DNA of 64,000 nucleotides from the IMG/VR virus record IMGVR_UViG_3300035390_000009, positions 6,318 to 70,317 of that record; one strand, 5' to 3'. The notes under the pieces were generated by a model. It ran no database searches and was not told the DNA's origin. It saw only the letters and a program-made list of their open reading frames with translations. This document shows, piece by piece, positions 2 to 13,704 of this stretch. This DNA comes from a virus. Numbering within the stretch: position 1 is the first letter of the stretch; each line of letters opens with the position of its first letter. The translations under genes and the position numbers were made by a program.

Positions 2-406
2 ACTATTACTAATTTAGAACAAGATGATTTAATGATTACTAATATTGATAGTCTTGAAGCATATAAATCTAGATATAGAACTATAGGAAAACATCTATTA
101 AAACAATATTGTGATTTTACATTGCAATTTGATTTCTTTGAATTTTCTATTTTAAATAACAAATTAATAGATGCTGGTTATATTATTACTGATATTAATA
201 GGGAAGAAAAATATCTTGAAATCATTAATACTGGAGATAGTGTTTTAATTAGTAATTTAGAAACATATCTCGAAGTTAAAGATAGGATTTCTATTCATAC
301 ACATCACTATAACAATTATATTACTTATAAAGATAATGTTAATTTATGTTCTAGTGCAATTGAAGTTGATGCCGCATATTCTGTGTATTCTTCTCTATAT
401 CAATAA
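2..406 (+). CDS. 5'-truncated hypothetical protein of the modification operon
   Basis: Frame is open from position 2 (TITNLEQDDL-MITNIDS...), so the track start at 32 is probably internal; stop at 404-406 is followed closely by the next gene. Confidence 0.7.
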   Translation, partial: TITNLEQDDLMITNIDSLEAYKSRYRTIGKHLLKQYCDFTLQFDFFEFSILNNKLIDAGYIITDINREEKYLEIINTGDSVLISNLETYLEVKDRISIHTHHYNNYITYKDNVNLCSSAIEVDAAYSVYSSLYQ

Positions 407-409
407 ACA

Positions 410-1303
410 TTGAAAAAATATTTATTAATTGCTCATAATTATGAATATCTAAAAAGAGGCGCTCATCTTACTTCAATAAGATTAGCAAAACAATATCCTG
501 AGTATCTAGATTATAAAATTGATCTAGATGCTCAGAATCTTGAAGAATTAAATGAACAATATAAAAGATTGATATTCATAACACAAGTGCCTAGTTGTTA
601 TAATTTAAATTTAAAATTTAATCGCTTAAAAAATTTAAATTATATATTCATGTTAAGAGGTACCAGGAATCCGTTAATTTACAATTCTAGTAATAATGGA
701 TTTCATTATTATAGATCTTATAAAAATATAAAATATTTTATTCCTTTCATTACAGATTTTCAAATTCCTAATGAAACTAAAAAAACATGTATTGGTTTTT
801 ATGTTCGTAGAAATATAACACCAGATTCATTAGCGTATACCAAAGACTTCTTAAATAATTTAAAATATCCAACTGATATATATGTAATGGGGGATCCTAC
901 TCCAGAATTTGAAAAAATAAAAAATGTCAAAAGTTATACTCACACATATGATCAATTTAAATTTTTCTCTAATATTAGTCATTATATTTATCCAACATCT
1001 ATAGTACATAATGATCCGTTTCCAAATAGTGTGTTGGAGGCAGTTCAATGTAATAAACAAATTATATTTCCAGCTCTTCCTAATAGAGTTCATAAAGATG
1101 GTATAGATGATATTAAGGATTGTATTAAATGGCATGAAACATATACCCCAGACAAAGAATTTGATAACTCAAAATGTATATTGATTAGTTCTAATTTTAA
1201 AAAATTTTATTTAAAATTATTTGATAATAATTTTGAATATAGTTTTGATAGAACTAAATATAATAAATTTGATAAATGGATTGAAAAAGAAGGAGATATA
1301 TAA
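410..1303 (+). CDS. Glycosyltransferase-like protein (GT-B-like), paralog 1
   Basis: C-terminal DPFPNSVLEAVQCNKQIIF resembles the GT-B E-x-F-x4-LEA-x3-G-x-P-I donor-binding motif; TTG start. Confidence 0.6.
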   Translation: MKKYLLIAHNYEYLKRGAHLTSIRLAKQYPEYLDYKIDLDAQNLEELNEQYKRLIFITQVPSCYNLNLKFNRLKNLNYIFMLRGTRNPLIYNSSNNGFHYYRSYKNIKYFIPFITDFQIPNETKKTCIGFYVRRNITPDSLAYTKDFLNNLKYPTDIYVMGDPTPEFEKIKNVKSYTHTYDQFKFFSNISHYIYPTSIVHNDPFPNSVLEAVQCNKQIIFPALPNRVHKDGIDDIKDCIKWHETYTPDKEFDNSKCILISSNFKKFYLKLFDNNFEYSFDRTKYNKFDKWIEKEGDI

Positions 1304-1305
1304 AA

Positions 1306-2286
1306 TTGTTAAATAAAGATATAGTGTTATACACTAAGACTAATAATGTTTTTTCTAACGATTGTTTAACCATATTTTGGACAATGACTAATGCATGTAA
1401 TTATAATTGTTTTTATTGTTCAGCAAATCCAAGAAATTTATTTCATCCTAAAGAAAAACTTATTTATAATATTATTGATTTTATTTTTAAATTACCAAAT
1501 AAAAATATAGAACTAACTTTAAGTGGAGGAGAAATAACAGCAATTCCAAATATTTTAGAATATTTTAAATATATAGTTAAAAAAACAAAATCAACAAATA
1601 AAAAAATATCTATAAGTATGCTTTCAAATTTTAAAAAATCTAATAAATTTTATGAAGATATATTTGAAATAACAAAACCTCTTGAAATTGTTAGAATGTA
1701 TTTTAGTTTTCATAGAGAATTTGTTTCATCTGATATTTTTATGCCAAAATATATTGAAATTGAATCTAAATATAAAGATAATATATTGCCCATGGGGTAT
1801 ATGATTCATAACAAAAATTGCATTGGTATTTTTAGAGATAATATAAAAAAATACCCAGAAATAAAATATAAAATAATGCCTATATTTGGATCAAATTTAT
1901 TAGAAAATGAAAATTTACCAATGACAAATAATCCAATTTCTAACATAGTTTATGTTTATTACAAAAATAATCAATATTATTACAAATTAAATAATGACCC
2001 CAAAATTATAACACGGGGATTAATATGTCCATCATTTTCAAAAGTTTTTTCAATTGATTTTAAGGGTTATATAAATAATTGTATAACAATGGAAAATAAA
2101 AAAAATTTACATTTTTTAAAAAAAGATATATTTGAAATATTAAAAAATAAAAAATATATAATATGTAATGAGAATAATTGTTTATGTCATCCAGAAATTC
2201 CAAAGATAAAAAATGATCCAATTCATAAGTTTTTATTAGATGTTGATTTTAACTATATTAAAAATAATTTTACAGAAATAAAATGA
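1306..2286 (+). CDS. Radical SAM enzyme
   Basis: CNYNCFYC (CxxxCxxC), LSGGE motif, Cys-rich C-terminus. Confidence 0.9.
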   Translation: MLNKDIVLYTKTNNVFSNDCLTIFWTMTNACNYNCFYCSANPRNLFHPKEKLIYNIIDFIFKLPNKNIELTLSGGEITAIPNILEYFKYIVKKTKSTNKKISISMLSNFKKSNKFYEDIFEITKPLEIVRMYFSFHREFVSSDIFMPKYIEIESKYKDNILPMGYMIHNKNCIGIFRDNIKKYPEIKYKIMPIFGSNLLENENLPMTNNPISNIVYVYYKNNQYYYKLNNDPKIITRGLICPSFSKVFSIDFKGYINNCITMENKKNLHFLKKDIFEILKNKKYIICNENNCLCHPEIPKIKNDPIHKFLLDVDFNYIKNNFTEIK

Positions 2287-2367
2287 ACTCAATAATTTAT
2301 TACAATATAAAAAATTATATAAATGGTTCCATTATAGATATTTAAAATAATAAGGAAACTAATATGA
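2283..2367 (+). pseudogene. Internally deleted remnant of the 3119-3919 gene
   Basis: First ~57 nt nearly identical to 3119-3175, joined at TAGAT to sequence matching 3874-3919; encodes only MNSIIYYNIKNYINGSIIDI*. Confidence 0.85.
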
Positions 2368-3056
2368 TTGAAGGTACTTATTTAAACATAGGCCCAGCAA
2401 AAAATGGAACAACTAGTTTTTTTAAAATGTTGAGTAATCATCCTCAAATACATCCTTCTAAAGTTAAAGAACCTGGGTGGTTTGGTTATAATATAAATGA
2501 AAATTATAATAAGTTTTTAGAGCTTTGGGATTTTAATAATATAAACTATTCTAGGAATTATATATTATTTACTGGTGAAGTTATGAGATTGAAATATTTA
2601 AAAAGTGATTATTTAAAATTACCTAATATAAAAAAATTTAAATTTATATTTATATTAAGAAATTTTAATGATTATCTTTTATCATTCATATTTCACAATT
2701 ATGTACTAACTAATATAATAGATGTAGATTGGTATATAAAAAAAAATATTTTTTACTATGAATATTTAGAAAATATATCAAAAAAAATTGGAAAAGAAAA
2801 TATTCTAATCATACATCTTAATGAAATTGAATCCAACCAAACTAAAATTTATGATTTTTTAGAAATTGACAATCACTACAAATTTAAATTAGAACACATA
2901 AACCCAAATTCAGAGAGTACCGTGTTATATAAAAAAGAATTGGTGAGGTATTATATAAATAAAAAACATGATATATTATCAAAAATTTATTTAGATGAAT
3001 TTTATAAAATACAAGAATTCTTTAATATTGATCTTGATAAAAAATTAATAATATAA
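2364..3056 (+). CDS. Sulfotransferase-family protein, copy 1
   Basis: 5'-PSB-like GPAKNGTTS, HPQI..KEP and ILRN..D..LS (3'-PB-like) motifs. Confidence 0.8.
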   Translation: MIEGTYLNIGPAKNGTTSFFKMLSNHPQIHPSKVKEPGWFGYNINENYNKFLELWDFNNINYSRNYILFTGEVMRLKYLKSDYLKLPNIKKFKFIFILRNFNDYLLSFIFHNYVLTNIIDVDWYIKKNIFYYEYLENISKKIGKENILIIHLNEIESNQTKIYDFLEIDNHYKFKLEHINPNSESTVLYKKELVRYYINKKHDILSKIYLDEFYKIQEFFNIDLDKKLII

Positions 3057-3065
3057 AGGAAAGAT

Positions 3066-3122
3066 ATGAAAGTAATTTATTGTGGACCTTTAAAAAGTAT
3101 TGATAATTATAAAATAAAATGA
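3066..3122 (+). pseudogene. 5' remnant of the 4618 radical SAM gene
   Basis: MKVIYCGPLKSIDNYKIK* matches MKVVYCGPIKYVDNYEIQ at 4618 in both protein and DNA sequence. Confidence 0.85.
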
Positions 3123-3919
3123 ACTCAATAATTTATTACATTATAAAAAATTATATAAATGGTTCTATTATAGATGCATTTGAATATTTTATTACTGCAT
3201 TTGAATATAATCCAAAATTAAATTTTATTTTAATTTCACCAGTAAAAATATCTATTGATTTTTTTGTTAATATTATAAACAATAGATATGATTTAAATCC
3301 TGGTTGGGAAAAAAATATTATTTTAATTAAACTACCAGAATTACTTCAATATAAATTTAATAAAGTTTTAGTATTAGATTACTGGACTATAAAAAATACC
3401 AGGGGTTTAATTAGATGTAATGAGTTAATTGTTATTAGTGAAAAACATACGGATGATTCACATTATATGTATTCAAAGTTATATACTAATGTAACATATT
3501 ATGGTGAAATGCCTTTTGAATATAGAGATGAAAAATATAATATTAAGTTAATGTTTTCTAAGTTTAAAAAATTAAATAATGTTGACTCTGGTATTTATAT
3601 AAACTCTCCTTATAATGATGATTATAGTTTTTTAGAAAAATTAAATTTGCCAGATAAACCATTATTATTTAAATCTGATAATCATATAGAAAATTTATTT
3701 GAGAAATTTGATACATATGTTTATTATCATGCTAATAAATGGTTTGATCCGCATCCAAGATTATTATTAGAATGTGCATATTATAATAAAACTATTTTAT
3801 ATTATAATGAACATAATATTATAGACGGTAGTTATTATAGATATCATGATCTTTTAAAAAATGGTTTAAAGAATAGATATTTAAATAAGAATGATAAAAT
3901 AATAAGGAAACTAATATGA
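3119..3919 (+). CDS. Glycosyltransferase-like protein, paralog 2
   Basis: C-terminal DPHPRLLLECAYYNKTI aligns with the motif of the 410, 6098 and 7033 proteins. Confidence 0.55.
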   Translation: MNSIIYYIIKNYINGSIIDAFEYFITAFEYNPKLNFILISPVKISIDFFVNIINNRYDLNPGWEKNIILIKLPELLQYKFNKVLVLDYWTIKNTRGLIRCNELIVISEKHTDDSHYMYSKLYTNVTYYGEMPFEYRDEKYNIKLMFSKFKKLNNVDSGIYINSPYNDDYSFLEKLNLPDKPLLFKSDNHIENLFEKFDTYVYYHANKWFDPHPRLLLECAYYNKTILYYNEHNIIDGSYYRYHDLLKNGLKNRYLNKNDKIIRKLI

Positions 3920-4608
3920 TTGAAGGTACTTATTTAAGTGTTGGTCCTGCAAAAAATGGAACATCTAGTTTTTTTAAAATGTTAAGTCAGCATCCTCAAA
4001 TGTATCCTTCTAAATATAAAGACCCATGTTTTGAAGGATACATTATATATGAAGACTATAATAAATTTTTAAATCTTTGGGATTTTAAAAAAATAGATTA
4101 TTCAAAGAAACATATATTATTTTCAGGGGAAGTTAAAAGAGATATATATTTAAAAAGTGATTATTTAAAATTACCTAATATAAAAAAAACTAAATATATA
4201 TTTATATTAAGAAAATTTATTGATAATTTTATTTCATTATTATTTCATGATTATATATTAACTAATAAAATAGATGTAGATTATTATATTAAAAAGAATT
4301 TTTTTTATTTTGATTATTTAAAAAATATATCAAAAAAAATTGGTAAAGAAAATATTTTTTTTATACGGTTTGATGAAATTGAATCTAAACAATCTGAAAT
4401 CTATGATTTTTTAGAAATTGATAATCAATATAAATTTACTTATCCATTTGTACAATCAAATCCAGGAAGTAAAGAAATATTTAAACGAAATCTAACAAAA
4501 CACTATTTTAATAAAAAATGTGATATTTTATTAAAAATTTTTTTAAATGAACTATATAAAATACAAAAAGAATTTAATATAGATTTAGATGATGAATCTT
4601 TAATTTAG
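3916..4608 (+). CDS. Sulfotransferase-family protein, copy 2
   Basis: GPAKNGTSS motif; same length (230 aa) as, and colinear with, the 2364 protein. Confidence 0.8.
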   Translation: MIEGTYLSVGPAKNGTSSFFKMLSQHPQMYPSKYKDPCFEGYIIYEDYNKFLNLWDFKKIDYSKKHILFSGEVKRDIYLKSDYLKLPNIKKTKYIFILRKFIDNFISLLFHDYILTNKIDVDYYIKKNFFYFDYLKNISKKIGKENIFFIRFDEIESKQSEIYDFLEIDNQYKFTYPFVQSNPGSKEIFKRNLTKHYFNKKCDILLKIFLNELYKIQKEFNIDLDDESLI

Positions 4609-4617
4609 GAAAAAAAT

Positions 4618-5529
4618 ATGAAAGTAGTTTATTGTGGACCTATAAAATATGTTGACAATTATGAAATCCAATGGTCTTTAACAAATAGATGTAATTATAA
4701 TTGTTCATATTGTGGCATTGTTACTAAAAATGAAAAATTTTCTTCATTAGAAAATATGAAAAAAAATTTAAATTTTTTATACTATTTAAATAATAAGAAA
4801 GAAGTTAAGTTAACTTTATTTGGTGGGGAACCAACCCATCATCCAGAATTTTTAAATCTACTAAAAATTATTGAATTACAAAATCTATCTATATTTACTA
4901 ATTTATCTAAAGATAAAAATTTTTTAAAAAAAGTTTTAGATATAAAACCAACCATAAGAATTAAAACATCCTTCCATAAAGAATATGCAAATCTCAATGA
5001 TTATATAGATAAGATTAAATTTATCGCTGAGCATGGAAATGAAATTTATTTATGTTTATTATGTAAAGATAAAAATAAAGAAACAATCGAAAATTATAAT
5101 AAAGTTAAAAATGCAACCAAAATGTATACTAATGTAATAGTTGATGTTATTAGTATTCATCCTAATATGAACGAAGAAGTTGTTAAATGGGGGGATGAAG
5201 TTAATAGTGATAGATTTAAAATAAAATATGATAATGGAAATGAAAATGAAGTTACTCTATCTAATATAATATATAATAATTTAAATTGCTTTGGACTATT
5301 TAAATGTTATTGTGGAATTAATAATCTTTTTATAGACTATAACTTTGATGTTCATTATTGTCAAACTTATAGAAATCATCATATAAAACCAATTTTTAAT
5401 CTTATAAATGATAACTATAAAGATTATGAAAATATATTTTCTAATGCAATGTTATGCAAACTTGAAAAGTGTTATTGTGAGGGTTTTATAAAAAAAGAAA
5501 AAGTTTTTAATAGAATAAAAAAATTATGA
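4618..5529 (+). CDS. Radical SAM enzyme with Cys-rich C-terminal (SPASM/twitch-like) region
   Basis: CNYNCSYC, FGGEP, C-terminal CYCG...YC...C...CYC. Confidence 0.9.
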   Translation: MKVVYCGPIKYVDNYEIQWSLTNRCNYNCSYCGIVTKNEKFSSLENMKKNLNFLYYLNNKKEVKLTLFGGEPTHHPEFLNLLKIIELQNLSIFTNLSKDKNFLKKVLDIKPTIRIKTSFHKEYANLNDYIDKIKFIAEHGNEIYLCLLCKDKNKETIENYNKVKNATKMYTNVIVDVISIHPNMNEEVVKWGDEVNSDRFKIKYDNGNENEVTLSNIIYNNLNCFGLFKCYCGINNLFIDYNFDVHYCQTYRNHHIKPIFNLINDNYKDYENIFSNAMLCKLEKCYCEGFIKKEKVFNRIKKL

Positions 5530-6101
5530 AAACATTAATGTTACATGATATAAAACCAATATATTTAAATTATGATTTAAAAAATTATGATTTGACTTTT
5601 GATGATGGTTTGTTTAGTCAGTTTTATTATTGGCCAATAATAAAAAAAATAAATACTAGTAAAATTTTTTTTATATGTTGTGATTTAATATCATTAGAGA
5701 ATAAAGTTAGACCCAATTTTAGAAATACTTTTATAGAATATCCAACATGTTTTCAATCTATGGATAAATACAAAAAGTTAAATATTAAATCAGATTATAT
5801 GACTATTGATGAATTAAAAATATTAAGTAAAGATGTAATGATAGGAGCTCATAGTTTTAGTCATAAAAAAATTAATATGAATGATAGTTTTTATAATATA
5901 AGTCAACAAATAAAACAAGATACTGAATTAATGTTAGAGTGGTTTAAAAAACATTTGAATCTTACCCCATTACATTACTGTTTTCCTTTTAATGAGAAAC
6001 ACTACTTACATGATTTATTATTACCATATTATGGGTTTAAACATTTTTACGGAAAAGAACGAATTGATATTGAATCTTTAGATATGGGAGAGTCTGAATG
6101 A
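5526..6101 (+). CDS. Polysaccharide deacetylase (NodB/CE4-like)
   Basis: LTFDDG, HSFSH metal-binding and YCFPF motifs. Confidence 0.85.
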   Translation: MKTLMLHDIKPIYLNYDLKNYDLTFDDGLFSQFYYWPIIKKINTSKIFFICCDLISLENKVRPNFRNTFIEYPTCFQSMDKYKKLNIKSDYMTIDELKILSKDVMIGAHSFSHKKINMNDSFYNISQQIKQDTELMLEWFKKHLNLTPLHYCFPFNEKHYLHDLLLPYYGFKHFYGKERIDIESLDMGESE

Positions 6102-7036
6102 AATTTATGAAAAAATATGATGTTTGTTTTATGCATCTTTTTACGTATTATATATGTGGAGATTTATTTCAAAGTTTTGAACATTTTTATTTATCAAGAA
6201 AAAATAAAATTAATGCCTGTTTATTTTTATCCATACATGTAGATAAAGAAAGAATAGAGCAATGCTTCAAACAAAAATATAATTTTGATGAATCAGAATT
6301 TGAGGAAATATTTTCCCATATTTATATTATTCCAATTAAAGAATTTATTAAAAAAAGAATGTATCAAACTTCTTTTAAAATAATATGTTTTCCAGGTATA
6401 CATCAATTATATCAATTATATACTGGAATTATTATACAACATCAAAAAGCTGTTGCCTTCGCTTGTATGCCTGTAGATGAAAGTAGGACAATATTTAATC
6501 TAGAAGTTTTTCAAGATTATAGAATTTATGGAGATACATTTTTAAACAATAAAACCTATAATTATGTAAGAAAATTATTACTAGATAAATATAAAAAACC
6601 AGAAAGTAATACAGAAGATACTGCTTTAATATATATTAAAAATTTTGTTAAAAATCATACTATTGAAAATACCATTAGGATGATGAAAGAATATAAATTT
6701 AAAAAATATTTAATATGTGTAGATAAACCTTTCTACCCTACTTTTTCAAAATTAAAAAATGCTCAAGTAGAAGTTATTACTTTACCAATTGATGATATCT
6801 TTTCTAAATTTTCAACTTATATATATTCTTTAATTAAAGATAATACTGATAAAGTTATTGATTGTTCTTCTAGATTTTTAATTGAATGTAAATATTTTAA
6901 TAAAGATATTATTTTTGATGGAGATATTAAAGATAAAGGATTATACTTCAGGAAACAAGATTTAGAAAATGATATAGAATGTTTAAATTTAAAAGATAAT
7001 GATTATTTTATTACTTATTTAAAGGATAATTTATGA
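6098..7036 (+). CDS. Glycosyltransferase-like protein, paralog 3
   Basis: N-terminal CGDLFQSFEHF similar to NGSIIDAFEYF of 3119; C-terminal DCSSRFLIECKYFNKDI. Confidence 0.55.
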   Translation: MKFMKKYDVCFMHLFTYYICGDLFQSFEHFYLSRKNKINACLFLSIHVDKERIEQCFKQKYNFDESEFEEIFSHIYIIPIKEFIKKRMYQTSFKIICFPGIHQLYQLYTGIIIQHQKAVAFACMPVDESRTIFNLEVFQDYRIYGDTFLNNKTYNYVRKLLLDKYKKPESNTEDTALIYIKNFVKNHTIENTIRMMKEYKFKKYLICVDKPFYPTFSKLKNAQVEVITLPIDDIFSKFSTYIYSLIKDNTDKVIDCSSRFLIECKYFNKDIIFDGDIKDKGLYFRKQDLENDIECLNLKDNDYFITYLKDNL

Positions 7037-7830
7037 TAACATTTATTGATCATTTAGATGATTATTTATGTGGAACTAATATTACATTATTAGATTGTTA
7101 TAAAAATTTATTAAAACTAAATATAGATTGCGAATTAAAAATACATTATACCAATTTAACAGTTGCCTCTAAATATACAAAACTCTTTAAATTAGTATCC
7201 TTTATAAAACAAATATCTAAAGAAAATATGATAGTTAAAGATGATATTATAATAACAACCCTATATACTTTAAAACAAAAATCTTACAAAATTAAATGTG
7301 ATAAATTAATAATATTAGATAGTTTAGATTTTTTAATGTGTCATAATCAAAACATTTTAGATGATTTATATTATGAAATAAGCAAAACATCTAATGAAAT
7401 AATTGTGTTAGCGAATCCATTCAATTTCCAATTTATTAAATATGATGTTATTGAGTATTATCATAAATTTGATTTTGATAGAATTAAAAAATTAGCAACC
7501 ACACGTGAGGTAGGCCCCGAATATATTCAAAATAGAGAACAAATTATAAATCCCTTTATGTATAAAAAATTTAATTATGAAAGATATTTTAAAGTTGGGG
7601 ATGGGTATTATGAAAACATATGTAAGATAATATATGAGTTTAATTATTTAAACAAAATAATTTCTTATTCTCCAAAAAATAAAACTTGTGATGATGGTTT
7701 AACTTATTATTTAAAATTATTTGATATTGATGATAATAAAGAGCAATTAATTAAAATAGAAAAAGAATTAATAATTGATAAGTTAGGTTTTTTTAAAAAT
7801 GATAATCTTATAGAGCTGGTGAATTTATGA
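7033..7830 (+). CDS. Glycosyltransferase-like protein, paralog 4 (degenerate)
   Basis: N-terminal LCGTNITLLDCY and C-terminal ENICKIIYEFNYLNKII...DDGL match the paralog pattern (DDG/DGS/DKG at the same place). Confidence 0.45.
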   Translation: MITFIDHLDDYLCGTNITLLDCYKNLLKLNIDCELKIHYTNLTVASKYTKLFKLVSFIKQISKENMIVKDDIIITTLYTLKQKSYKIKCDKLIILDSLDFLMCHNQNILDDLYYEISKTSNEIIVLANPFNFQFIKYDVIEYYHKFDFDRIKKLATTREVGPEYIQNREQIINPFMYKKFNYERYFKVGDGYYENICKIIYEFNYLNKIISYSPKNKTCDDGLTYYLKLFDIDDNKEQLIKIEKELIIDKLGFFKNDNLIELVNL

Positions 7831-8747
7831 AAATTTTAGAATTAGGATTAAAAGAATATATTCCGGATGAGATATTTTTTAGTCATTGGGCAGTAACTAA
7901 TAATTGTAATTATAAATGTGATTATTGTGTTTTATCAAAATGTGAAAAATATAGTAATGAAGAAACCTGTAATAAAATAATAGAATTTTATAATTATATA
8001 AATAAAACTAAAAAATTAATTTTAGTTTTGTTTGGTGGAGAACCAACCATACATCCTTTATTTTTAGATATTTTAAATAAACTAAATGCAGCCCCTAAAA
8101 TTTTTACTAATCTTAGTAAAAATATATCTTTTTTAGAAAATATTGTTAATATAAATAATAATGTTGAAATAATAACATCTTATCATCATAGAATAACTAA
8201 TATAAATAATTTTATAGATAAGATAAAATTCTTAGTAGAAAATGTTAAATTTGTTAGAATAAAAATTATGTATGAATTAGAATTTGCTAAAGAAATTGAA
8301 AATATATTTTATGAAGTTAAAGAATTAGATAAAGTATATGACAATTGTTTGACTACCCTTGACATGGTTTATAAACCAAATCAAAATATTACTACTGATG
8401 AATTAAATAATTTTTTATTATTACAAACCGATAAACAATATTATGTTAAATATAGATTAAATAATAAAATAATAGAAGAAGATATATCATATAATCAAAT
8501 TCGAGCTTTGGGTAATACTTCTTTTAAATATTATAGATGTATGAGTGGGAGAAAAAATATTTTCGTTGACTTTAATGGAGATGTATTCTTTTGTCAAACC
8601 ATGAGAAACATGAAAAGAAAGCCAATTTTTAATTTAATGATAGACGATTTTAAAAATCATTTAAATATTTTTAAAAGTGACATTATATGTTTTGAAGATG
8701 ATTGTTGTTCTGAGGTATCAGTACCTAAATATTGGACAAGAAAGTAA
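7827..8747 (+). CDS. Radical SAM enzyme, paralog of 4618
   Basis: CNYKCDYC, FGGEPTIHP, C-terminal CMSG..NIFVDFNGDVFFCQT and C..DDCC. Confidence 0.9.
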   Translation: MKILELGLKEYIPDEIFFSHWAVTNNCNYKCDYCVLSKCEKYSNEETCNKIIEFYNYINKTKKLILVLFGGEPTIHPLFLDILNKLNAAPKIFTNLSKNISFLENIVNINNNVEIITSYHHRITNINNFIDKIKFLVENVKFVRIKIMYELEFAKEIENIFYEVKELDKVYDNCLTTLDMVYKPNQNITTDELNNFLLLQTDKQYYVKYRLNNKIIEEDISYNQIRALGNTSFKYYRCMSGRKNIFVDFNGDVFFCQTMRNMKRKPIFNLMIDDFKNHLNIFKSDIICFEDDCCSEVSVPKYWTRK

Positions 8748-9559
8748 TGGAAAAAATTTATGTAGAGATTAGTGGTATATGTAATTTGAATTGTATTTTT
8801 TGTGGTTATAAATATAGACCTCTTAAAGGTATTATGGATTTTGATTTATTTAAAAAATGTATTAATCAAATTGTAATTTCTGGAATTAAAGATATTAGAT
8901 TAACTCCAATGGCTGGAGAAATATTTATGGACCCAAATTGGAAAGAAAAACTTGATTATATAGAATCTATTAAAGAAATTGAAAGTTATGAATTTTTTAC
9001 TAATTTTACTGTTATAAATGATATAGAATATTTATCTACATTGAAAAAATTAAATAGTATTACTATAAGTATATACGGAAATAATTTAGATTCATTTTTA
9101 GAATTGACTAATAGTAAAAAAATATATTATGATCAATTAATAAAAAATTTAAGAATATTAAAAGATATAAAAATCAAAAATTTAAAAATAGTTATTAAAT
9201 CTAAGTTAGATTATTTTGATAATTATTTAAAGGGTGAATTATTTCAAATTTTATATAATTTCAAAGGTAATATAGTACAATATAAAGAACTAGATAATTT
9301 TAATGGATTATCAAATAATTTGAATTTTGATAATTTAAAAACTATAAACAATATTAATTGTAATGTTTTAGAAACAAAAAATATTATATTGTGGAATGGT
9401 GATTTTAATTTATGTGGGTGTAGAGATATATTTCAAAAATCTACAATCGGTAATATCAAAAATACTCCCTTAAAAGAATTATTAGAAAGCAATGATTATG
9501 AAATAATGAAACAAAATAAATTAATAATATGCAAAGATTGTAGTGGGATATACTCATGA
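8732..9559 (+). CDS. Radical SAM/SPASM-domain enzyme
   Basis: CNLNCIFC; SPASM-like C..L..K.IILWNGD..LC.CRD....IGNI....L...CKDC. Confidence 0.9.
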   Translation: MDKKVMEKIYVEISGICNLNCIFCGYKYRPLKGIMDFDLFKKCINQIVISGIKDIRLTPMAGEIFMDPNWKEKLDYIESIKEIESYEFFTNFTVINDIEYLSTLKKLNSITISIYGNNLDSFLELTNSKKIYYDQLIKNLRILKDIKIKNLKIVIKSKLDYFDNYLKGELFQILYNFKGNIVQYKELDNFNGLSNNLNFDNLKTINNINCNVLETKNIILWNGDFNLCGCRDIFQKSTIGNIKNTPLKELLESNDYEIMKQNKLIICKDCSGIYS

Positions 9560-10389
9560 ATAAAAGAATAACATTATCTCTATTAAACACATGTAATGAA
9601 AAATGTTTTTATTGTGATATACCAGAAGCAACTAATTTTAAAAAATTTGTATACAATGAAAATATTTTTAGATTAATTAAAAAATTTGAATCCATATCTT
9701 TTAGTGGTGGAGAAATAGGATTATTAGATGAGGAAGATTTTATTTTTTTATTTGATTATTTTTCTGACAATAAGATAACAGTTTGTACTAATGGTTTGTT
9801 TTTTGAAAAAGGTTTTTATGATCTATTTCATAATAAAATCGACTCCATTGTTTATCATATATTAGAAGAAAATAAAATTATAGATATCAATGATCCAATG
9901 ATAGATAGAGATATTATTATACATAAGAAAAATATAGAAAATGTGTATAATATTATTAGTGACAACCCAGGTTTAAATTTTTATTTAAAATTAGCTCATT
10001 TAAGAACTCCAGATAAATCATTTATTATAGATGATTATGATACATTAAATAAATTTTCAAATCTAAAAAATATAAAAAATTATGAAATGATAAAAGAGTT
10101 TTCTAATATGGATAATAATTTTTATAATAATATATTAAAGTTTTGTAATAGATACCCATATTCATCTTTAATAGATTTAGTGGATTATAAAATTAAACAT
10201 TGTTGTACTAAACATATTAATAATCCAGAAAAAATATTAAATGAAGAAAATATTGAACTCCTATTAAATGATAAATTATTTAAAAACGTTAGTTTAAAAT
10301 ATTGTGATAATTGTAATTTTGTACTATCTATTAAACAAGATTTATTAGATAAAATGTTTTCTATTTTAAAGGATAAAAAGAATGTATGA
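9556..10389 (+). CDS. Radical SAM enzyme
   Basis: CNEKCFYC, FSGGE, VCTNG, C-terminal HCC...CDNC. Confidence 0.88.
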   Translation: MNKRITLSLLNTCNEKCFYCDIPEATNFKKFVYNENIFRLIKKFESISFSGGEIGLLDEEDFIFLFDYFSDNKITVCTNGLFFEKGFYDLFHNKIDSIVYHILEENKIIDINDPMIDRDIIIHKKNIENVYNIISDNPGLNFYLKLAHLRTPDKSFIIDDYDTLNKFSNLKNIKNYEMIKEFSNMDNNFYNNILKFCNRYPYSSLIDLVDYKIKHCCTKHINNPEKILNEENIELLLNDKLFKNVSLKYCDNCNFVLSIKQDLLDKMFSILKDKKNV

Positions 10390-11776
10390 TAAAATAATGT
10401 TTATATCAGTTAACAATGGCACTATAAGTACTGTAAGACATGGGGGAACGTATTATATTAAACAACATTTAAAAAATAATGGTATTGAAAGTTCATGTGT
10501 AGATTATTTCTATTCTATGGCAAATAGATTCAAAGATAAAAATTATACAACATACGTAGCTGAGATGGCTGATATGCCTAGTTTTGTTAAACTTCTAACT
10601 AACTATAAAAAAGGAAAAGATAATTTATTAGATGGGTTAGATGAATTAACCGGGATACAAGAAGAAATTATTAGTCAAATAAATAAGAATTTTAAAAAAA
10701 TAAAAATTACTAATAAATCTATAGTAGGATTTTCAATTAATTATTTAAACTTTTTTGTATGTTCTTATTATGCTTTATTAATTAAAAAAGAATACCCCGA
10801 CATAACAATTGTTTTTGGAGGGTATCAAATGACATTAAGTGAAAAGTCTAGAAAATTTGTCATTGGTACTAAAATAGCAGATTATGTTGTTACAGGTGAT
10901 GGGTGCACACCAATGTTAGATATTATAAATGGTAAGTGTTTACAACCAGAAATTCATGGAGAGTTTCTTGATGATTGTCCATGGCCAGAATATTCTAAAT
11001 TTAATATTAGATTATCTAGTAATACAGTATCATTATATACTTCAATAGGATGTCCAAATAATTGTAGTTTTTGTGCTAGTAAAAGAAAATATAAACTATA
11101 TGATTTAAATAAACTTAAAATATACTTAGATAAAATGCATAAGCTCGGTATAAAGAAAATAGAATTTTGTGATGATAATTTAAATGCTACACTTAAAAGA
11201 GGCCATGATGTCTCAACATTAATGGAAAATTATAAGTTACCCAAAGGATGGAATTTTTTTGGGCATGTAACTAATATTGATACTGATTTGGCAAATCATT
11301 TAAAATATTCTGGTTGTTGTAGTATATTTTTAGGAACAGAAGGATTCACTAATACTGTTACTAAATTAATGCACAAAAATCAAACTGTAGAGCAATCATT
11401 AAATGCAATTGACCTAGTAGCTAGTAGGAAAATTGTAGTTGGGTCAGGTTTAATAATTGGAATGCCTGGCGATACAGAAGAAAGTGTAAATTATCTTGTT
11501 AAAATGTGTGAAAACTTAAAAAATAAATATGGGGAATTTTATAACATAATTCCAACAATTTATAAATGTTACCCTGGATCTGAAATATATAATTACCCAG
11601 AAAGATTTGGAATAACATTAAGTTATTGGGATAAAATTTATGCTGATGAACTTCCTGAAGTTGCAGATTTAATTTTATCTATACCAAAAACATTTAATGT
11701 AGATAAACTTAGTAGAGAATATGCAATTAAAATTTTAAATATGATAAGAAAAAGATGGCCAACTAAAGGAATTTAA
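10382..11776 (+). CDS. Cobalamin-binding radical SAM enzyme (class B methyltransferase-like)
   Basis: N-terminal B12-binding-like region (IVGFSI, IVFGGYQMT, VVTGDG), GCPNNCSFC, FCDDNL, IIGMPGDT. Confidence 0.88.
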   Translation: MYDKIMFISVNNGTISTVRHGGTYYIKQHLKNNGIESSCVDYFYSMANRFKDKNYTTYVAEMADMPSFVKLLTNYKKGKDNLLDGLDELTGIQEEIISQINKNFKKIKITNKSIVGFSINYLNFFVCSYYALLIKKEYPDITIVFGGYQMTLSEKSRKFVIGTKIADYVVTGDGCTPMLDIINGKCLQPEIHGEFLDDCPWPEYSKFNIRLSSNTVSLYTSIGCPNNCSFCASKRKYKLYDLNKLKIYLDKMHKLGIKKIEFCDDNLNATLKRGHDVSTLMENYKLPKGWNFFGHVTNIDTDLANHLKYSGCCSIFLGTEGFTNTVTKLMHKNQTVEQSLNAIDLVASRKIVVGSGLIIGMPGDTEESVNYLVKMCENLKNKYGEFYNIIPTIYKCYPGSEIYNYPERFGITLSYWDKIYADELPEVADLILSIPKTFNVDKLSREYAIKILNMIRKRWPTKGI

Positions 11777-12269: not shown

Positions 12270-13310
12270 ATGAAAACAATACATATAAAACAAAAAGGGT
12301 TTCTTGTACAAGTTGGAAATAAAGTTGTTAGAACTCCTTTGATTATTAAATGTGATCCAGAACAAGAAGCTTTGATATTACAAGAAATTGAAAAATATAA
12401 TATTGTATATTATGAAATTGATGAAGGTGTTGCAAAAATGCCTAAATTAATTGTACCAACAAAATCTACTGCATCATCAAAAAAGGTTTCAGGTACTTTA
12501 TTAAAAAAGTATATTTTAAATTATAAGAAAGATAACGAAGATCTAAAAGATCATAAACCGTTAAAACTTTCAACACCATTGTTAGAAAAAATTCAGGCAA
12601 CTACTAATGTGATAGATTATACCTTAGAAATGAGTGAAGTTAAAAACCAGGGAAGTCTTGGTTCATGTGTTGGATTTGCTGTTGTTTCAATGAAAGAATG
12701 GCAGGAACAACAAGAGCACCTAGAAGAATTAGAAGAAGGTAAATCTTATAAGAGAGCTAAAAAACATTACGACTTGTCTGAGCAATGGTTATATTATAAA
12801 TGTAAAGAAATAGATTATTGGCCAGGTGAAGAAGGAACCTCAATTAGATTTGCTATGAAAATATTAAATCAAGTTGGAGTCCCATGTGAAAAAGCATGGC
12901 CATATAATGCTAGTTATGTAGGAAAACCAAAACGATGGGCAAATTTAGTTTCTAAATGGGCCCTTGGTGGAGAGTATATTAGATTAGAAACTCCAGAAGA
13001 TATAATTAATTCTCTTGGGACTAATGGACCTTTACCAATTGGTGTTGGAGTATTTTTGGAAATGTTTTATACCACAAGTAATGGTATTGTTGCATATCCA
13101 AATGATCCTGATACTTGTTATGGAGGTCATGCTATTTGTTTAGTAGGATGGAATCCTAAAACCCAAATGTTTAAATTCAAAAATTCTTGGGGAATTAGTT
13201 GGGGAGAAAATGGTTATGGGTATTTACCATATAATTATATTAAAGATTTCTGCTGGGACTCATGGGAAATTAAAGACCTTAGTGTGACCAAGGAAATGTT
13301 AAAGGGGTAA
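12270..13310 (+). CDS. Papain-family (C1) cysteine protease with N-terminal extension
   Basis: NQGSLGSCVGFA (catalytic Cys), DLSEQ, GGHAI (His), KNSWG..WGENGYG (Asn). Confidence 0.92.
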   Translation: MKTIHIKQKGFLVQVGNKVVRTPLIIKCDPEQEALILQEIEKYNIVYYEIDEGVAKMPKLIVPTKSTASSKKVSGTLLKKYILNYKKDNEDLKDHKPLKLSTPLLEKIQATTNVIDYTLEMSEVKNQGSLGSCVGFAVVSMKEWQEQQEHLEELEEGKSYKRAKKHYDLSEQWLYYKCKEIDYWPGEEGTSIRFAMKILNQVGVPCEKAWPYNASYVGKPKRWANLVSKWALGGEYIRLETPEDIINSLGTNGPLPIGVGVFLEMFYTTSNGIVAYPNDPDTCYGGHAICLVGWNPKTQMFKFKNSWGISWGENGYGYLPYNYIKDFCWDSWEIKDLSVTKEMLKG

Positions 13311-13311
13311 A

Positions 13312-13704
13312 ATGATTATATGGTTAACTGGCAACAGTGGTTCAGGAAAAACTACTGTTGCTTATACTATAAAAAATATTTTTTTTAATTGGATAGTATT
13401 AGATGGTGATGAAATGAGACATTCTATTTCAAGAGATTTAGGATTATCAAAAAACGACCGAATAAAAAATAATATTATAATTGCTAGATTAGCTAATATT
13501 TTACATAAACAAGGTTTCAATATAATTATATCATCTATTGCTCCATTTCAATGCGGTAGAGAATTGGTAAATAAAATAATTAATTGTATTTGGATATATA
13601 TAGAAGGAGGAAAAACCGGATATAAATATCCATATGAAATACCTGATTGTATAAGATTTAATTCTATACAACAATTGCAAGATATTATTAAGGAGAATTT
13701 ATGA
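13312..13704 (+). CDS. cysC: Adenylylsulfate (APS) kinase-like, compact
   Basis: IWLTGNSGSGKTT P-loop, LDGDEMR..I..DLGLS..DR..N, ISSIAP..R; shorter than typical CysC. Confidence 0.8.
   Translation: MIIWLTGNSGSGKTTVAYTIKNIFFNWIVLDGDEMRHSISRDLGLSKNDRIKNNIIIARLANILHKQGFNIIISSIAPFQCGRELVNKIINCIWIYIEGGKTGYKYPYEIPDCIRFNSIQQLQDIIKENL

Follow-up and report, generated by a model that had tools for sequence, protein, structure and literature searches.

In mycobacteriophages, phage glycosyltransferases encoded beside structural genes O-glycosylate capsid and tail proteins. The locus described here resembles that system in having soluble glycosyltransferases within a structural module, no export machinery and a proposed virion acceptor, but it adds KdsA/KdsB-like activation, de-N-acetylation, sulfation with an APS kinase and at least six radical SAM enzymes, and the acceptor it would modify is a fibre with Cys repeats and an S74 chaperone. 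Pelagimyophages and cyanomyophages carry a "host recognition cluster", a hypervariable tail-fibre region with glycosyltransferases, LPS-type sugar genes and radical SAM cassettes (PMC7029224), and cyanophage S-SCSM2R encodes cell-wall synthesis genes including kdsA and kdsB (PMC12801897). Our locus shares the tail-fibre-associated, hypervariable set of glycosyltransferase, sugar and radical SAM genes; however, those phages are T4-like, whereas no similarity to any cultured phage could be detected for the contig studied here, and accounts of the cluster contain no enzyme-level analysis, sulfotransferases or Cys-repeat protein and assume the host O-chain as target.

Among the Campylobacter group II phages, CP220 and CPt10 (Firehammervirus) encode 11-12 radical SAM enzymes without an assigned role (PMC2853527, PMC3322345) and are comparable in their low GC content and many radical SAM and carbohydrate genes, although in CP220 these are scattered and do not form one module. 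CP220 gp140 contains the same repeat as the Cys-repeat fibre protein, in the form (CxCDCNY)n, but with a period of 7 aa and without a visible S74 split. Two further systems concern the radical SAM enzymes: at NxxC motifs, NxxcB joins Cys to Asn through a beta-thioether (PMC9389541), and CrpC, a radical SAM/SPASM enzyme, cross-links the entire Cys-rich protein encoded beside it, CrpA (PMC13692751). Here, too, a repeat protein rich in Cys and in NxxC motifs is encoded beside several radical SAM enzymes, some with SPASM-like Cys clusters, but the putative substrate is a phage structural protein, and these enzymes have no detected RiPP recognition element (RRE) and reach no family threshold. Finally, the joint encoding of a GlcNAc-type transferase, a CE4 deacetylase and a sulfotransferase recalls the logic of heparan sulfate NDST and PgaB. 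By E-value, the best solved relative of the CE4 profile is PgaB, and those of the sulfotransferase profile are one bacterial sulfotransferase followed by heparan sulfate 3-OST/NDST; with separate small proteins and 10-15% identity to the solved enzymes, this is an analogy of logic and not family membership.

The window, a stretch of 64,000 nucleotides of DNA of an uncultured sediment phage (IMG/VR record IMGVR_UViG_3300035390_000009, positions 6,318 to 70,317), contains 14 contiguous open reading frames on the plus strand between positions 2 and 11776, of which the 13 from position 410 onward form one co-directional block with six radical SAM enzymes, four glycosyltransferases (labelled GT-A to GT-D, not to be confused with the GT-B fold), two sulfotransferases and one CE4 de-N-acetylase (Table 1). 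The original prediction of such an assembly line, made from the letters alone, was confirmed by the reading frames, Pfam scores, folds and upstream genes, including its location on a single strand and its continuation upstream of the window. Its statement that almost every junction is an ATGA-type overlap was a mild overstatement, as seven 4-nt ATGA overlaps are accompanied by one 8-nt overlap, one possible 16-nt overlap (the real start of the radical SAM/SPASM gene is probably the ATG at 8747, MEKIY...) and gaps of 2-77 nt at the remaining junctions. The GC content of the block is 19-20% compared to about 30% in the rest of the contig, and the neighbouring genes are fibre or structural genes. 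The N-terminal half of the 304-aa protein truncated at the window start is Ser/Thr-rich and looks structural.

Table 1. Coordinates in the window of the genes of the block and of associated features.
Positions	Strand	Feature	Basis or remark
2..406	+	134-aa C-terminal part of 304-aa protein (full gene L006:5809-6723)	phrog_25260
410..1303	+	GT-A, compact GT-B-fold (GT4-like) glycosyltransferase	model, Foldseek, D-x7-E motif
1306..2286	+	radical SAM enzyme 1, CNYNCFYC motif	PF04055 30.9 bits
2364..3056	+	sulfotransferase 1, PAPS-type	5'-PSB PAKNGTTS, 3'-PB LRNFNDYLLS
3066..3119	+	radical SAM gene N-terminus remnant, 18 codons (MKVIYCGPLKSIDNYKIK)	marks tandem duplication
3119..3919	+	GT-B, GT4-like glycosyltransferase, phrog_14526	Atlas model, TM 0.63-0.66 to GT4
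3916..4608	+	sulfotransferase 2, paralog of sulfotransferase 1	motifs, profile
4618..5529	+	radical SAM enzyme 2, Cys-rich C-terminal region	PF04055 36.8 bits
5526..6101	+	CE4-type de-N-acetylase	phrog_26430 5e-9
6098..7036	+	GT-C, putative diverged relative of the GT-B (3119-3919) family	BLASTP 1e-7, D-x7-E...NK motif
7033..7830	+	GT-D, GT-B-fold glycosyltransferase, E-x7-E motif	model, VIA
7827..8747	+	radical SAM enzyme 3, SPASM/twitch-like Cys-rich C-terminus	PF04055 30.7 bits
8732..9559	+	radical SAM/SPASM enzyme	PF04055 52.1 bits, PF13186 33.9 bits
9556..10389	+	radical SAM enzyme 4	PF04055 31.5 bits
10382..11776	+	large radical SAM enzyme, ~200-aa N-terminal domain then core	PF04055 58.6 bits
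13312..13704	+	APS kinase, short (130 aa)	PF01583 78.2 bits

None of the four glycosyltransferases has a match in Pfam, but all share a [D/E]-x7-E...NK motif. The model of GT-A (pLDDT 94) matches GT4 enzymes in the PDB by Foldseek (probability 1.0, E about 3e-5), and in the VIA search with the GT-D model (pLDDT 83) all 50 top matches are GT-B-fold enzymes (Z 13.4 to BshA, 13.3 to PimA). Together with the GT-B model and the homology of GT-C, for which relatives give full-length matches, this bears out the four predicted glycosyltransferases: the proteins model to a GT-B fold, and the assignment therefore withstood the possibility of a non-glycosyltransferase fold. GT-A, with 75 metagenomic homologs, is the enzyme that consistently opens the module and a candidate priming transferase. 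Neither it nor the sulfotransferases have a match in GenBank phages. The only cultured-phage homolog of GT-B is the distantly related gp116 of Campylobacter phage CP220 (27% identity).

The two predicted sulfotransferases share 65% identity as well as the PAKNGT[TS]S and LRNxxDxxxS motifs for PAPS. In an alignment of both with their HMMER relatives, 33 of the 45 sequences are Pfam Sulfotransfer_1, the relatives being classed as Sulfotransfer_1/3, and the profile matches solved sulfotransferases at 1e-34 to 1e-21 (3rnl 1e-34, heparan sulfate 3-OST/NDST 1e-24 to 1e-21); judged by sequence, both resemble carbohydrate (heparan-sulfate-type) enzymes. The APS kinase gene 1.5 kb downstream of the block (TIGR00455 3.9e-22, with an alignment restricted to model positions up to ~110 of 184) probably supplies their PAPS. 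The Pfam score of the CE4 protein is below threshold (18.5 bits, cut-off 23.1), yet besides its phrog assignment the match of its family profile to PgaB (1.1e-5) and the invariant TFDD and HxxxH (HSxxH) motifs uphold the predicted deacetylase, which resembles PNAG de-N-acetylases.

All six predicted radical SAM enzymes score above threshold for PF04055 (30.7-58.6 bits, cut-off 29.5) and carry a CxxxCxxC motif, and the single SPASM enzyme was recovered as well (PF13186 cut-off 21.5). None of them reaches the threshold of a curated radical SAM family. Enzyme 1 weakly matches the HxsB/C, viperin and PapB families and has homologs in L013 and L016, two of the related loci described below; enzymes 2 and 3 are paralogs (35% identity, BLASTP 1.4e-47), with matches of enzyme 3 to the STM4011 family (3.5e-13) and the SPASM region of a nif11 maturase (5.5e-7). 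The family of enzyme 4 is the most repeated radical SAM family in the related loci, with up to four paralogs per locus. The predicted cobalamin dependence of the large enzyme is plausible: its best matches are B12-radical-SAM families (PhpK family 1.5e-33), but only the radical SAM core aligns with these and with PDB 9ccb, AprD4, OxsB, TsrM and TokK, and Pfam finds no B12-binding domain. It has the architecture of class B, and its activity may be that of a methyltransferase or of a sugar dehydratase like AprD4; a homolog in L023 is 42% identical.

Directly upstream, before the window begins, six genes form a cassette of KdsA (255.9 bits, equivalog cut-off 242), a radical SAM/SPASM enzyme, an FSA-type aldolase, a KdsB-like cytidylyltransferase and two unknown proteins. 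Homologs of the four named proteins and of one unknown, unk266, recur in L009 at 38-55% identity, where the unknown genes are in a different order and the insertion point differs. Considering this Kdo cassette upstream and the APS kinase downstream, the most likely products of the pathway are a Kdo-type sugar in activated form and a glycan carrying sulfate. In the proposed sequence, a CMP-activated Kdo-type sugar would be produced, the transferases would assemble a short oligosaccharide, and an N-acetyl-hexosamine would lose its acetyl group before receiving N- or O-sulfate, with deacetylase and sulfotransferase acting in the order known from heparan sulfate. The radical SAM enzymes would modify sugars further, whether by oxidation, epimerisation, deoxygenation or C-methylation. 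Of the sulfated and methylated glycan that had been predicted, the sulfated part is supported by the GT-B folds, the sulfotransferases, the CE4 and APS kinase genes and the KdsA/KdsB cassette, but the methylated part is not.

The gene neighbourhood was conserved in about 13 related metagenomic loci. GT-A of independent loci is 36-67% identical to that of the window. The module follows a fibre protein of 150-430 aa that consists in part of (CxCxCNYx)n repeats and whose S74 chaperone is split; the recurring order is radical SAM, small gene, two radical SAM genes, Cys-repeat protein and S74 remainder, followed by a ~200-aa protein, GT-A, the conserved adjoining GT-B, usually soon thereafter CE4, and then variable glycosyltransferase, radical SAM and sugar genes (including DegT aminotransferase, epimerase, GT2, PIG-L and carbamoyltransferase). 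The ~200-aa protein belongs to the phrog_25260 family and precedes GT-A wherever its position was fetched in relatives, two fetched loci having no detectable match. All 9 loci for which enough upstream DNA was fetched have a trio of radical SAM genes a short distance upstream of GT-A, mostly directly before the fibre gene, and phages of this group have 8-18 radical SAM genes. A lookup from the fibre side, made for three Cys-repeat homologs, gave the same architecture each time, whereas L012 and L023 have no Cys-repeat open reading frame adjoining GT-A. Our contig ends within the Cys-repeat gene, and no upstream radical SAM trio is visible in it. The octapeptide repeats, which read C-N-Y-A-C, end at the S74 chaperone cleavage motif.

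Since the module lies beside the Cys-repeat fibre protein, the phage may decorate its own fibre. With moderate confidence we regard the block as the variable half of a phage glycan and post-translational-modification module in the tail-fibre cluster, and gene order suggests that the virion fibre is probably the target of this hypervariable cassette. The most likely acceptor would be the adjacent trimeric Cys-repeat fibre protein, whose repeats, should they fold as a beta-helix, would present Thr, Asn and Gln at intervals of eight residues. The genes downstream of GT-A, GT-B and CE4 vary among phages as in an O-antigen locus, which would mean a distinct fibre coat for each phage. Furthermore, the Cys-repeat protein opens a second role for some radical SAM enzymes, above all the conserved trio before the fibre gene in relatives, which may cross-link the Cys repeats. 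A phage decorating its own fibre with such a kit has not been described before. The original interpretation is thus partly supported, namely for the sulfated glycan and for virion fibres, which gain from the location in the fibre module, the synteny and the lack of a flippase, polymerase or ligase, but not for methylation or for phage DNA.

The main rival, a serious one that the prediction did not propose, is remodelling of the host envelope, in which soluble enzymes of a seroconversion-type island would act on lipid-linked LPS or capsule intermediates and use the flippase, polymerase and ligase of the host, so that a sulfated Kdo glycan blocks superinfection or alters recognition. KdsA, KdsB-like, GT4, epimerase and DegT/aminotransferase genes are typical of O-antigen, LPS and capsule loci, low GC content and locus-to-locus variability resemble cell-surface glycan islands, and glycosyltransferase and radical SAM cassettes of pelagimyophages and marine myophages were read as O-chain modifiers (PMC7029224), as was a cyanomyophage with kdsA/kdsB (PMC12801897). 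We consider it less likely than the fibre reading: the module encodes no membrane-associated step (none of the 13 block enzymes or the upstream cassette has a hydrophobic segment, the maximal Kyte-Doolittle 19-residue mean being <=1.58), even in diverged phages it stays tied to one particular fibre protein with its chaperone, it lies in an apparently structural, presumably late, gene block, and 6-14 radical SAM genes are not normal for O-antigen loci.

A mainly protein-cross-linking, RiPP-like system, in which most radical SAM enzymes make thioether or other links in the fibre and the glycosyltransferase, sulfotransferase and CE4 genes are secondary decoration or unrelated, would account for the constant upstream trio, the 8-19% Cys and repeated NxxC motifs of the fibre proteins and the weak matches of several window enzymes to PapB, HxsB/C, SCIFF-type and nif11 maturase families, and has precedents in NxxcB (PMC9389541) and CrpC/CrpA (PMC13692751). 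It appears improbable, as the radical SAM genes of the block are interleaved with sugar enzymes and not with the fibre gene, the enzymes are short (275-326 aa), have no recognisable RRE and stay below every curated threshold, and CxCxC could equally bind metal or form disulfides in the core of a triple beta-helix, for which no enzyme would be required. Hypermodification of phage DNA to evade restriction, with the GT-B-fold enzymes glycosylating modified bases like the T4 alpha-/beta-glucosyltransferases and the others tailoring the sugar, is very improbable. In its favour, the T4 alpha-glucosyltransferase is among the structural matches (Z 11.3), and the gene for CP220 gp116 adjoins those for DNA polymerase and QueC in a phage whose DNA contains deazaguanine. 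Against it, the T4 enzyme ranks below dozens of other GT-B-fold enzymes, the fibre-module location is constant, the block has no nucleotide- or DNA-directed gene, and no thymidylate-synthase-like hydroxymethylase was found in this and four related records.

The block also contains a repetition in its DNA: positions 2343-3121 and 3895-4673, each spanning one of the sulfotransferase genes, form a tandem duplication with 82% DNA identity.

The enzyme block forms part of a module that recurs in other phage contigs. As originally predicted, its genes are co-directional, with 14 contiguous ORFs on the plus strand (2-11776). The ATGA-type overlap proposed for almost every junction holds for seven of them, which share 4 nt; two further junctions overlap by 8 and possibly 16 nt and the others are gaps of 2-77 nt. 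The same gene set was found in recurring order in about 13 loci, with 36-67% identity between their GT-A and that of the window, and the module was recovered from the GT-A side and, independently, from the side of a Cys-repeat protein. Its first part consists of a radical SAM gene, a small gene, two further radical SAM genes, one to three copies of the Cys-repeat gene and the remainder of an S74 domain, followed by a protein of about 200 aa (the family of the first ORF of the window), GT-A, GT-B, CE4 and a variable set. This set contains GT-C/GT-D-like transferases and radical SAM paralogs, with up to four copies per locus of one family, together with sugar enzymes (DegT aminotransferase, NDP-sugar epimerase/dehydratase, GT2, PIG-L deacetylase, carbamoyltransferase and transketolase), and it also takes in a Kdo cassette and the sulfotransferases. 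The Cys-rich gene adjoins radical SAM genes in relatives, and in two of the related loci no Cys-repeat ORF was detectable. A single-protein search of genome contigs gave no match. With a narrower alignment, two contigs (L022 and L023) carrying GT-A, GT-B, CE4 and a B12-type radical SAM gene were retrieved from Candidatus Woesearchaeota and Candidatus Heimdallarchaeota MAGs. As relatives encode peptidoglycan hydrolases, these are probably viral contigs mis-binned by composition; an archaeal host is the less likely reading.

Upstream of the window, the contig of this phage (locus L006) starts with a 5'-truncated ORF that carries about 11 tandem C-T-C-Q/N-C-N-Y-A octapeptides near its end, followed by SDRRLKTEIEYM and a stop codon. 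SDRRLKTEIEYM is the beginning of an S74 intramolecular chaperone, a type of domain that serves trimeric fibres or spikes, and the ORF ends 12 residues past the predicted S74 cleavage serine. The remainder of the chaperone is a separate ORF about 5 kb downstream, past the Kdo cassette. In relatives this remainder (about 85-100 aa) adjoins the fibre ORF; its frame differs from that of the fibre ORF in loci L008 and L013, and in L009 it follows the stop in the same frame. The split Peptidase_S74 could be a trans-acting chaperone or a case of recoding. Full-length Cys-repeat homologs have 150-430 aa and 8-19% Cys, start with MACTGH and CxxH repeats and continue with a conserved central domain (WTD..PL..IK..HxNELRxAI) and a (CxCxC[N/D]Yx)n block. 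The family comprises more than 300 metagenomic proteins, and most of the 53 homologs examined end in SDxRLKxxIxY[LIM]. The numbers of N-terminal CxxH and C-terminal CxCxC repeats are correlated (r = 0.63) and equal in one of 38 parsable homologs with a MAC start. An octapeptide period whose first, third and fifth residues are Cys would fit a triple beta-helix that has Cys in the core and Thr, Asn and Gln outside. The protein is a candidate for a metal-binding or radical-SAM-cross-linked fibre of this fold. A homotrimer prediction (score 0.01) counts neither way.

The original prediction that four related GT-like proteins are encoded in the block was confirmed with regard to the fold, for three of them by structure comparison and for GT-C by homology alone. 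No Pfam family, including Glycos_transf_1, matched any of the four at E <=0.01. The GT-A model, built from 38 homologs (pLDDT 94), resembles GT4 enzymes (WaaG-type LPS GT, BshA, HepE and SenB) with a Foldseek probability of 1.0; PDB searches with the single sequence and with a profile gave no match, and fold comparison alone succeeded. For GT-D (model pLDDT 83), VIA-align over residues 1-265 gave Z-scores of 13.4 for BshA and 13.3 for PimA, with GT-B-fold enzymes in each of the first 50 places. This fold call is that of VIA-align, as Foldseek on the same model did not settle the fold. A helicase-like reading of GT-D, which came from misleading feature matches on a poor Atlas model, was discarded in favour of the GT-B fold. 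The Atlas model of the GT-B gene product reached TM values of 0.63-0.66 to GT4 families, and GT-C is its diverged paralog. Where GT4 enzymes have their E-x7-E signature, all four proteins have a [D/E]-x7-E...NK motif; the signature is exact in GT-D and reads D-x7-E in the other three. They are therefore related by fold and motif, and homology at the sequence level was detectable between the GT-B gene product and GT-C only; hhalign of the GT-A family against the other three gave weak probabilities of 0.4-13%.

Coordinates of the features of the enzyme block, its surroundings and related loci (window positions unless a locus is named)
Feature	Position	Details
Member of the ~200-aa protein family	2-406	
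GT-A	410-1303	
Tandemly duplicated unit	2343-3121 and 3895-4673	82% DNA identity across 765 nt
Sulfotransferases	2364-3056 and 3916-4608	65% identity
Remnant peptide	3066-3119	MKVIYCGPLKSIDNYKIK
GT-B gene	3119-3919	
CE4 deacetylase	5526-6101	
GT-C	6098-7036	
GT-D	7033-7830	
Radical SAM enzyme, nif11-like match	7827-8747	
SPASM enzyme	8732-9559	PF13186 33.9 bits, cut-off 21.5
Radical SAM family with up to four copies per locus	9556-10389	
Radical SAM enzyme with N-terminal extension	10382-11776	
Papain-family (C1) cysteine peptidase	12270-13310	346 aa
APS kinase	13312-13704	130 aa; PF01583 78.2 bits, profile positions 3-97 of 152 (~two thirds) covered
Collagen-like fibre	17481-19559	PHROG match
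Radical SAM gene, minus strand	L007:3881-4639 (contig of this phage)	
Cys-repeat fibre ORF	L006:1-519 (contig 1-519)	5'-truncated
S74 part within the fibre ORF	L006:505-519	
Cassette protein	L006:2667-3413	248 aa
Cassette protein	L006:4726-5526	266 aa
S74 remainder	L006:5529-5798	89 aa
S74 remainder in relatives	L008:9097-9354, L013:5234-5488, L009:8820-9332	
CP220 gp140	L025:6933-8537	534 aa, hypothetical protein
CP220 gp116	L024:13995-14726	

The two predicted sulfotransferases proved to be of the PAPS type, with a 5'-PSB loop (PAKNGT[TS]S) and a 3'-PB motif (LRN-x2-D-x3-S) that are both kept in relatives. An exhaustive HMMER search with a sulfotransferase retrieved 447 relatives, compared with the paralog only in a word-indexed search. 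Taken alone, the two window proteins had no Pfam match; in an alignment of the pair with 43 relatives, 33 of the 45 sequences were assigned to Sulfotransfer_1. Their joint profile matched a bacterial PDB entry (3rnl, 1e-34) as well as heparan-sulfate 3-O- and N-sulfotransferases (1e-24 to 1e-21). Both genes lie in a tandem duplication whose unit comprises the sulfotransferase and the opening 18 codons of the radical SAM gene that follows, and a remnant peptide persists immediately ahead of the GT-B gene. The CE4 assignment is likewise upheld, with TFDD and H-S/T-x-x-H motifs invariant in nine homologs. The single sequence scored 18.5 bits in Pfam, under the cut-off of 23.1, and matched phrog_26430 (5e-9); the family profile matched PgaB (1.1e-5) and IcaB (2.6e-4). 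With an APS kinase downstream of the block and a Kdo cassette upstream, both PAPS supply and sugar activation are probably phage-encoded. The stop codon of the APS kinase gene overlaps the start of an M15 peptidase gene (ATGA).

The upstream cassette on L006 encodes KdsA, a radical SAM/SPASM enzyme, a 248-aa protein, an FSA/TalC-type aldolase, a KdsB-like cytidylyltransferase and a 266-aa protein. KdsA scored 255.9 bits, over the equivalog cut-off of 242, and the cytidylyltransferase 148.9 bits (1e-43), under its cut-off of 193. Neither KdsC nor KdsD was recognised in the cassette, where the FSA-type aldolase and the radical SAM/SPASM enzyme stand in their place, and a complete four-enzyme CMP-Kdo pathway (KdsA, KdsB, KdsC and KdsD) was therefore discarded. 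With this incomplete set the product may be a Kdo derivative, or the missing steps may be supplied by the host. The cassette genes, minus one of the 248- and 266-aa proteins, recur in locus L009 with 38-55% identity, at another insertion point of the module and in slightly altered order, so that the cassette appears to be mobile as a unit. The 248- and 266-aa proteins are weak paralogs that share an N-terminal SGK[ST] P-loop, an RDPR-type motif and an FE.L...(N)P motif. Their matches to the sulfotransferase profile (P-loop fold) are sub-significant but co-linear, and by these sequence features the two may be additional enzymes of a sulfotransferase- or kinase-like kind.

The count of six radical SAM enzymes stands, since all scored over the PF04055 cut-off of 29.5 bits (30.7-58.6 bits) and contain CxxxCxxC. 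The single SPASM enzyme was also verified, and one further enzyme shows a weak match to a nif11 maturase in its SPASM region. All six fell short of the cut-offs of curated NCBIfam families, with peptide maturases (HxsB/C, PapB and nif11), MoaA or a tungsten-cofactor maturase, viperin and the STM4011 family as the strongest of the weak matches. The product of the last gene of the block has an architecture resembling class B, with an N-terminal extension of about 200 aa ahead of the radical SAM core. Its best NCBIfam matches are B12-radical-SAM families (PhpK 1.5e-33, far under the cut-off of 600), and a B12-binding Pfam domain was not matched. In the PDB profile search the core alone aligned, with the sugar diol-dehydratase AprD4 and the B12 enzymes OxsB, TsrM and TokK. 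AprD4 has the same N-terminal-extension architecture yet is not known to use cobalamin. Methylation by the enzyme of the block hinges on a putative cobalamin dependence. In total, this 79-kb record contains eight radical SAM genes, one of them on the minus strand, and the four related incomplete records (G001-G004) contain 16, 18, 9 and 10.

The original interpretation is partly supported: the glycan pathway holds and a fibre is favoured over DNA as its destination, with methylation and the target both putative. In the proposed pathway a CMP-Kdo-type donor would be synthesised, with the FSA-type aldolase perhaps substituting for KdsD in the formation of arabinose-5-phosphate, in keeping with FSA chemistry. 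GT-A would prime the acceptor, and GT-B, GT-C and GT-D would extend it. By analogy with heparan sulfate, CE4 might expose an amine for N-sulfation by a sulfotransferase, and radical SAM enzymes would tailor the sugars. We infer that the acceptor is most probably the neighbouring Cys-repeat fibre. The standard reading of such genes is remodelling of the host envelope by the cassette (PMC7029224, PMC12801897), which agrees with the low GC and with the genes present. However, this leaves the fixed linkage to one fibre family unexplained, and also the absence of a membrane step, as hydrophobic segments are absent from all pathway enzymes and genes for a flippase, polymerase or ligase from the module; we regard it as less likely, but as a serious rival. 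DNA glycosylation in the manner of T4-type hypermodification has little support: the general GT-B resemblance to T4 alpha-glucosyltransferase and the location of gp116, a distant homolog in Campylobacter phage CP220, near DNA polymerase speak for it, whereas no hydroxymethylase (thymidylate-synthase homolog, PF00303) scored over the cut-off in any of five records, a weak negative as all are incomplete (19-66%).

With the fibre as acceptor, part of the radical SAM complement may also act on protein. NxxcB forms Cys-Asn beta-thioethers at NxxC motifs (PMC9389541), and for a radical SAM/SPASM enzyme, cross-linking of an entire Cys-rich protein from the neighbouring gene has been demonstrated (PMC13692751). 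By analogy, the NxxC motif contained in the C-N-Y-A-C repeats would be open to such chemistry. Taken to its full extent, this would give a trimeric, Cys-lined beta-helix fibre with covalent staples made by radical SAM enzymes and, at every eighth residue, a sulfated and N-deacetylated oligosaccharide that contains Kdo, differs between strains and comes from a hypervariable phage cassette, a combination that we consider unlikely as a whole. If true, it would be a categorically new, RiPP-like and glycosaminoglycan-mimicking receptor-binding organelle of large anaerobe-infecting phages, and it would explain the 8-18 radical SAM genes here and in Campylobacter phages such as CP220.

Systems of this kind, in which phages encode the synthesis of glycans and glycosylation in linkage with structural genes, are already known. 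In the literature searched we found no description of a phage module with sulfotransferases, Kdo and radical SAM genes or of the Cys-repeat fibre, so that a fibre-linked module uniting phage-encoded sulfation, a cassette for a Kdo-type sugar and dense tailoring by radical SAM enzymes is undescribed there. A glycan on the virion would add a much more elaborate system, variable like O-antigens, to the virion glycosylation of mycobacteriophages and would bear on how host range and the evasion of immunity and defence are encoded. Among cultured phages, parts of the system have their nearest relatives in the Campylobacter group II phages. CP220 gp140 contains (CxCDCNY)7 and further scattered CxC motifs, and is encoded in the structural region near an 'RNA ligase and tail fiber protein attachment catalyst' and a radical SAM gene; its repeat was formerly recorded only as a 21-bp intragenic repeat (PMC2853527). 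Elsewhere in this genome, gp116 is 27% identical to the product of the GT-B gene. CP220 has 11 radical SAM genes without known role (PMC2853527, PMC3322345) and is a possible experimental handle. The module offers a testable answer to the question, open since 2010, why some phages hold at least a dozen radical SAM genes (PMC2853527). Furthermore, it offers in compact form new sulfotransferases for carbohydrates, GT-B transferases of minimal size (265-312 aa) and radical SAM chemistry directed at sugars or proteins.

The window spans bases 6318-70317 of its parent IMG/VR virus record, which has 79,155 bp with an estimated completeness of 49%, and near-identical DNA is present in three sediment metagenomes. 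The phage identity of the record is based on tail-fibre PHROG matches, the S74 fibre chaperone, the M15 endolysin-type peptidase and the IMG/VR classification. Among GenBank phages no match was obtained by megablast, run with the block and with 20 kb from the structural region, or by tblastn, run with GT-A, one sulfotransferase and one Cys-repeat protein. Helicase and tail-protein searches yielded no usable taxonomic placement, so that pelagimyophage or T4-like status is not demonstrable, and tRNAs were not found. The GC content of the block is 18-23% (26% in the last gene) with a GC3 of about 10% (6.5-14% over most of it), compared with about 30% GC in the remainder of the contig, where it climbs from roughly 12 kb onward. 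This suggests that the low-GC enzyme block is an island of different history or under different mutational pressure. Between the block and the APS kinase lies a papain-family cysteine peptidase, for which fibre processing or lysis are candidate roles.
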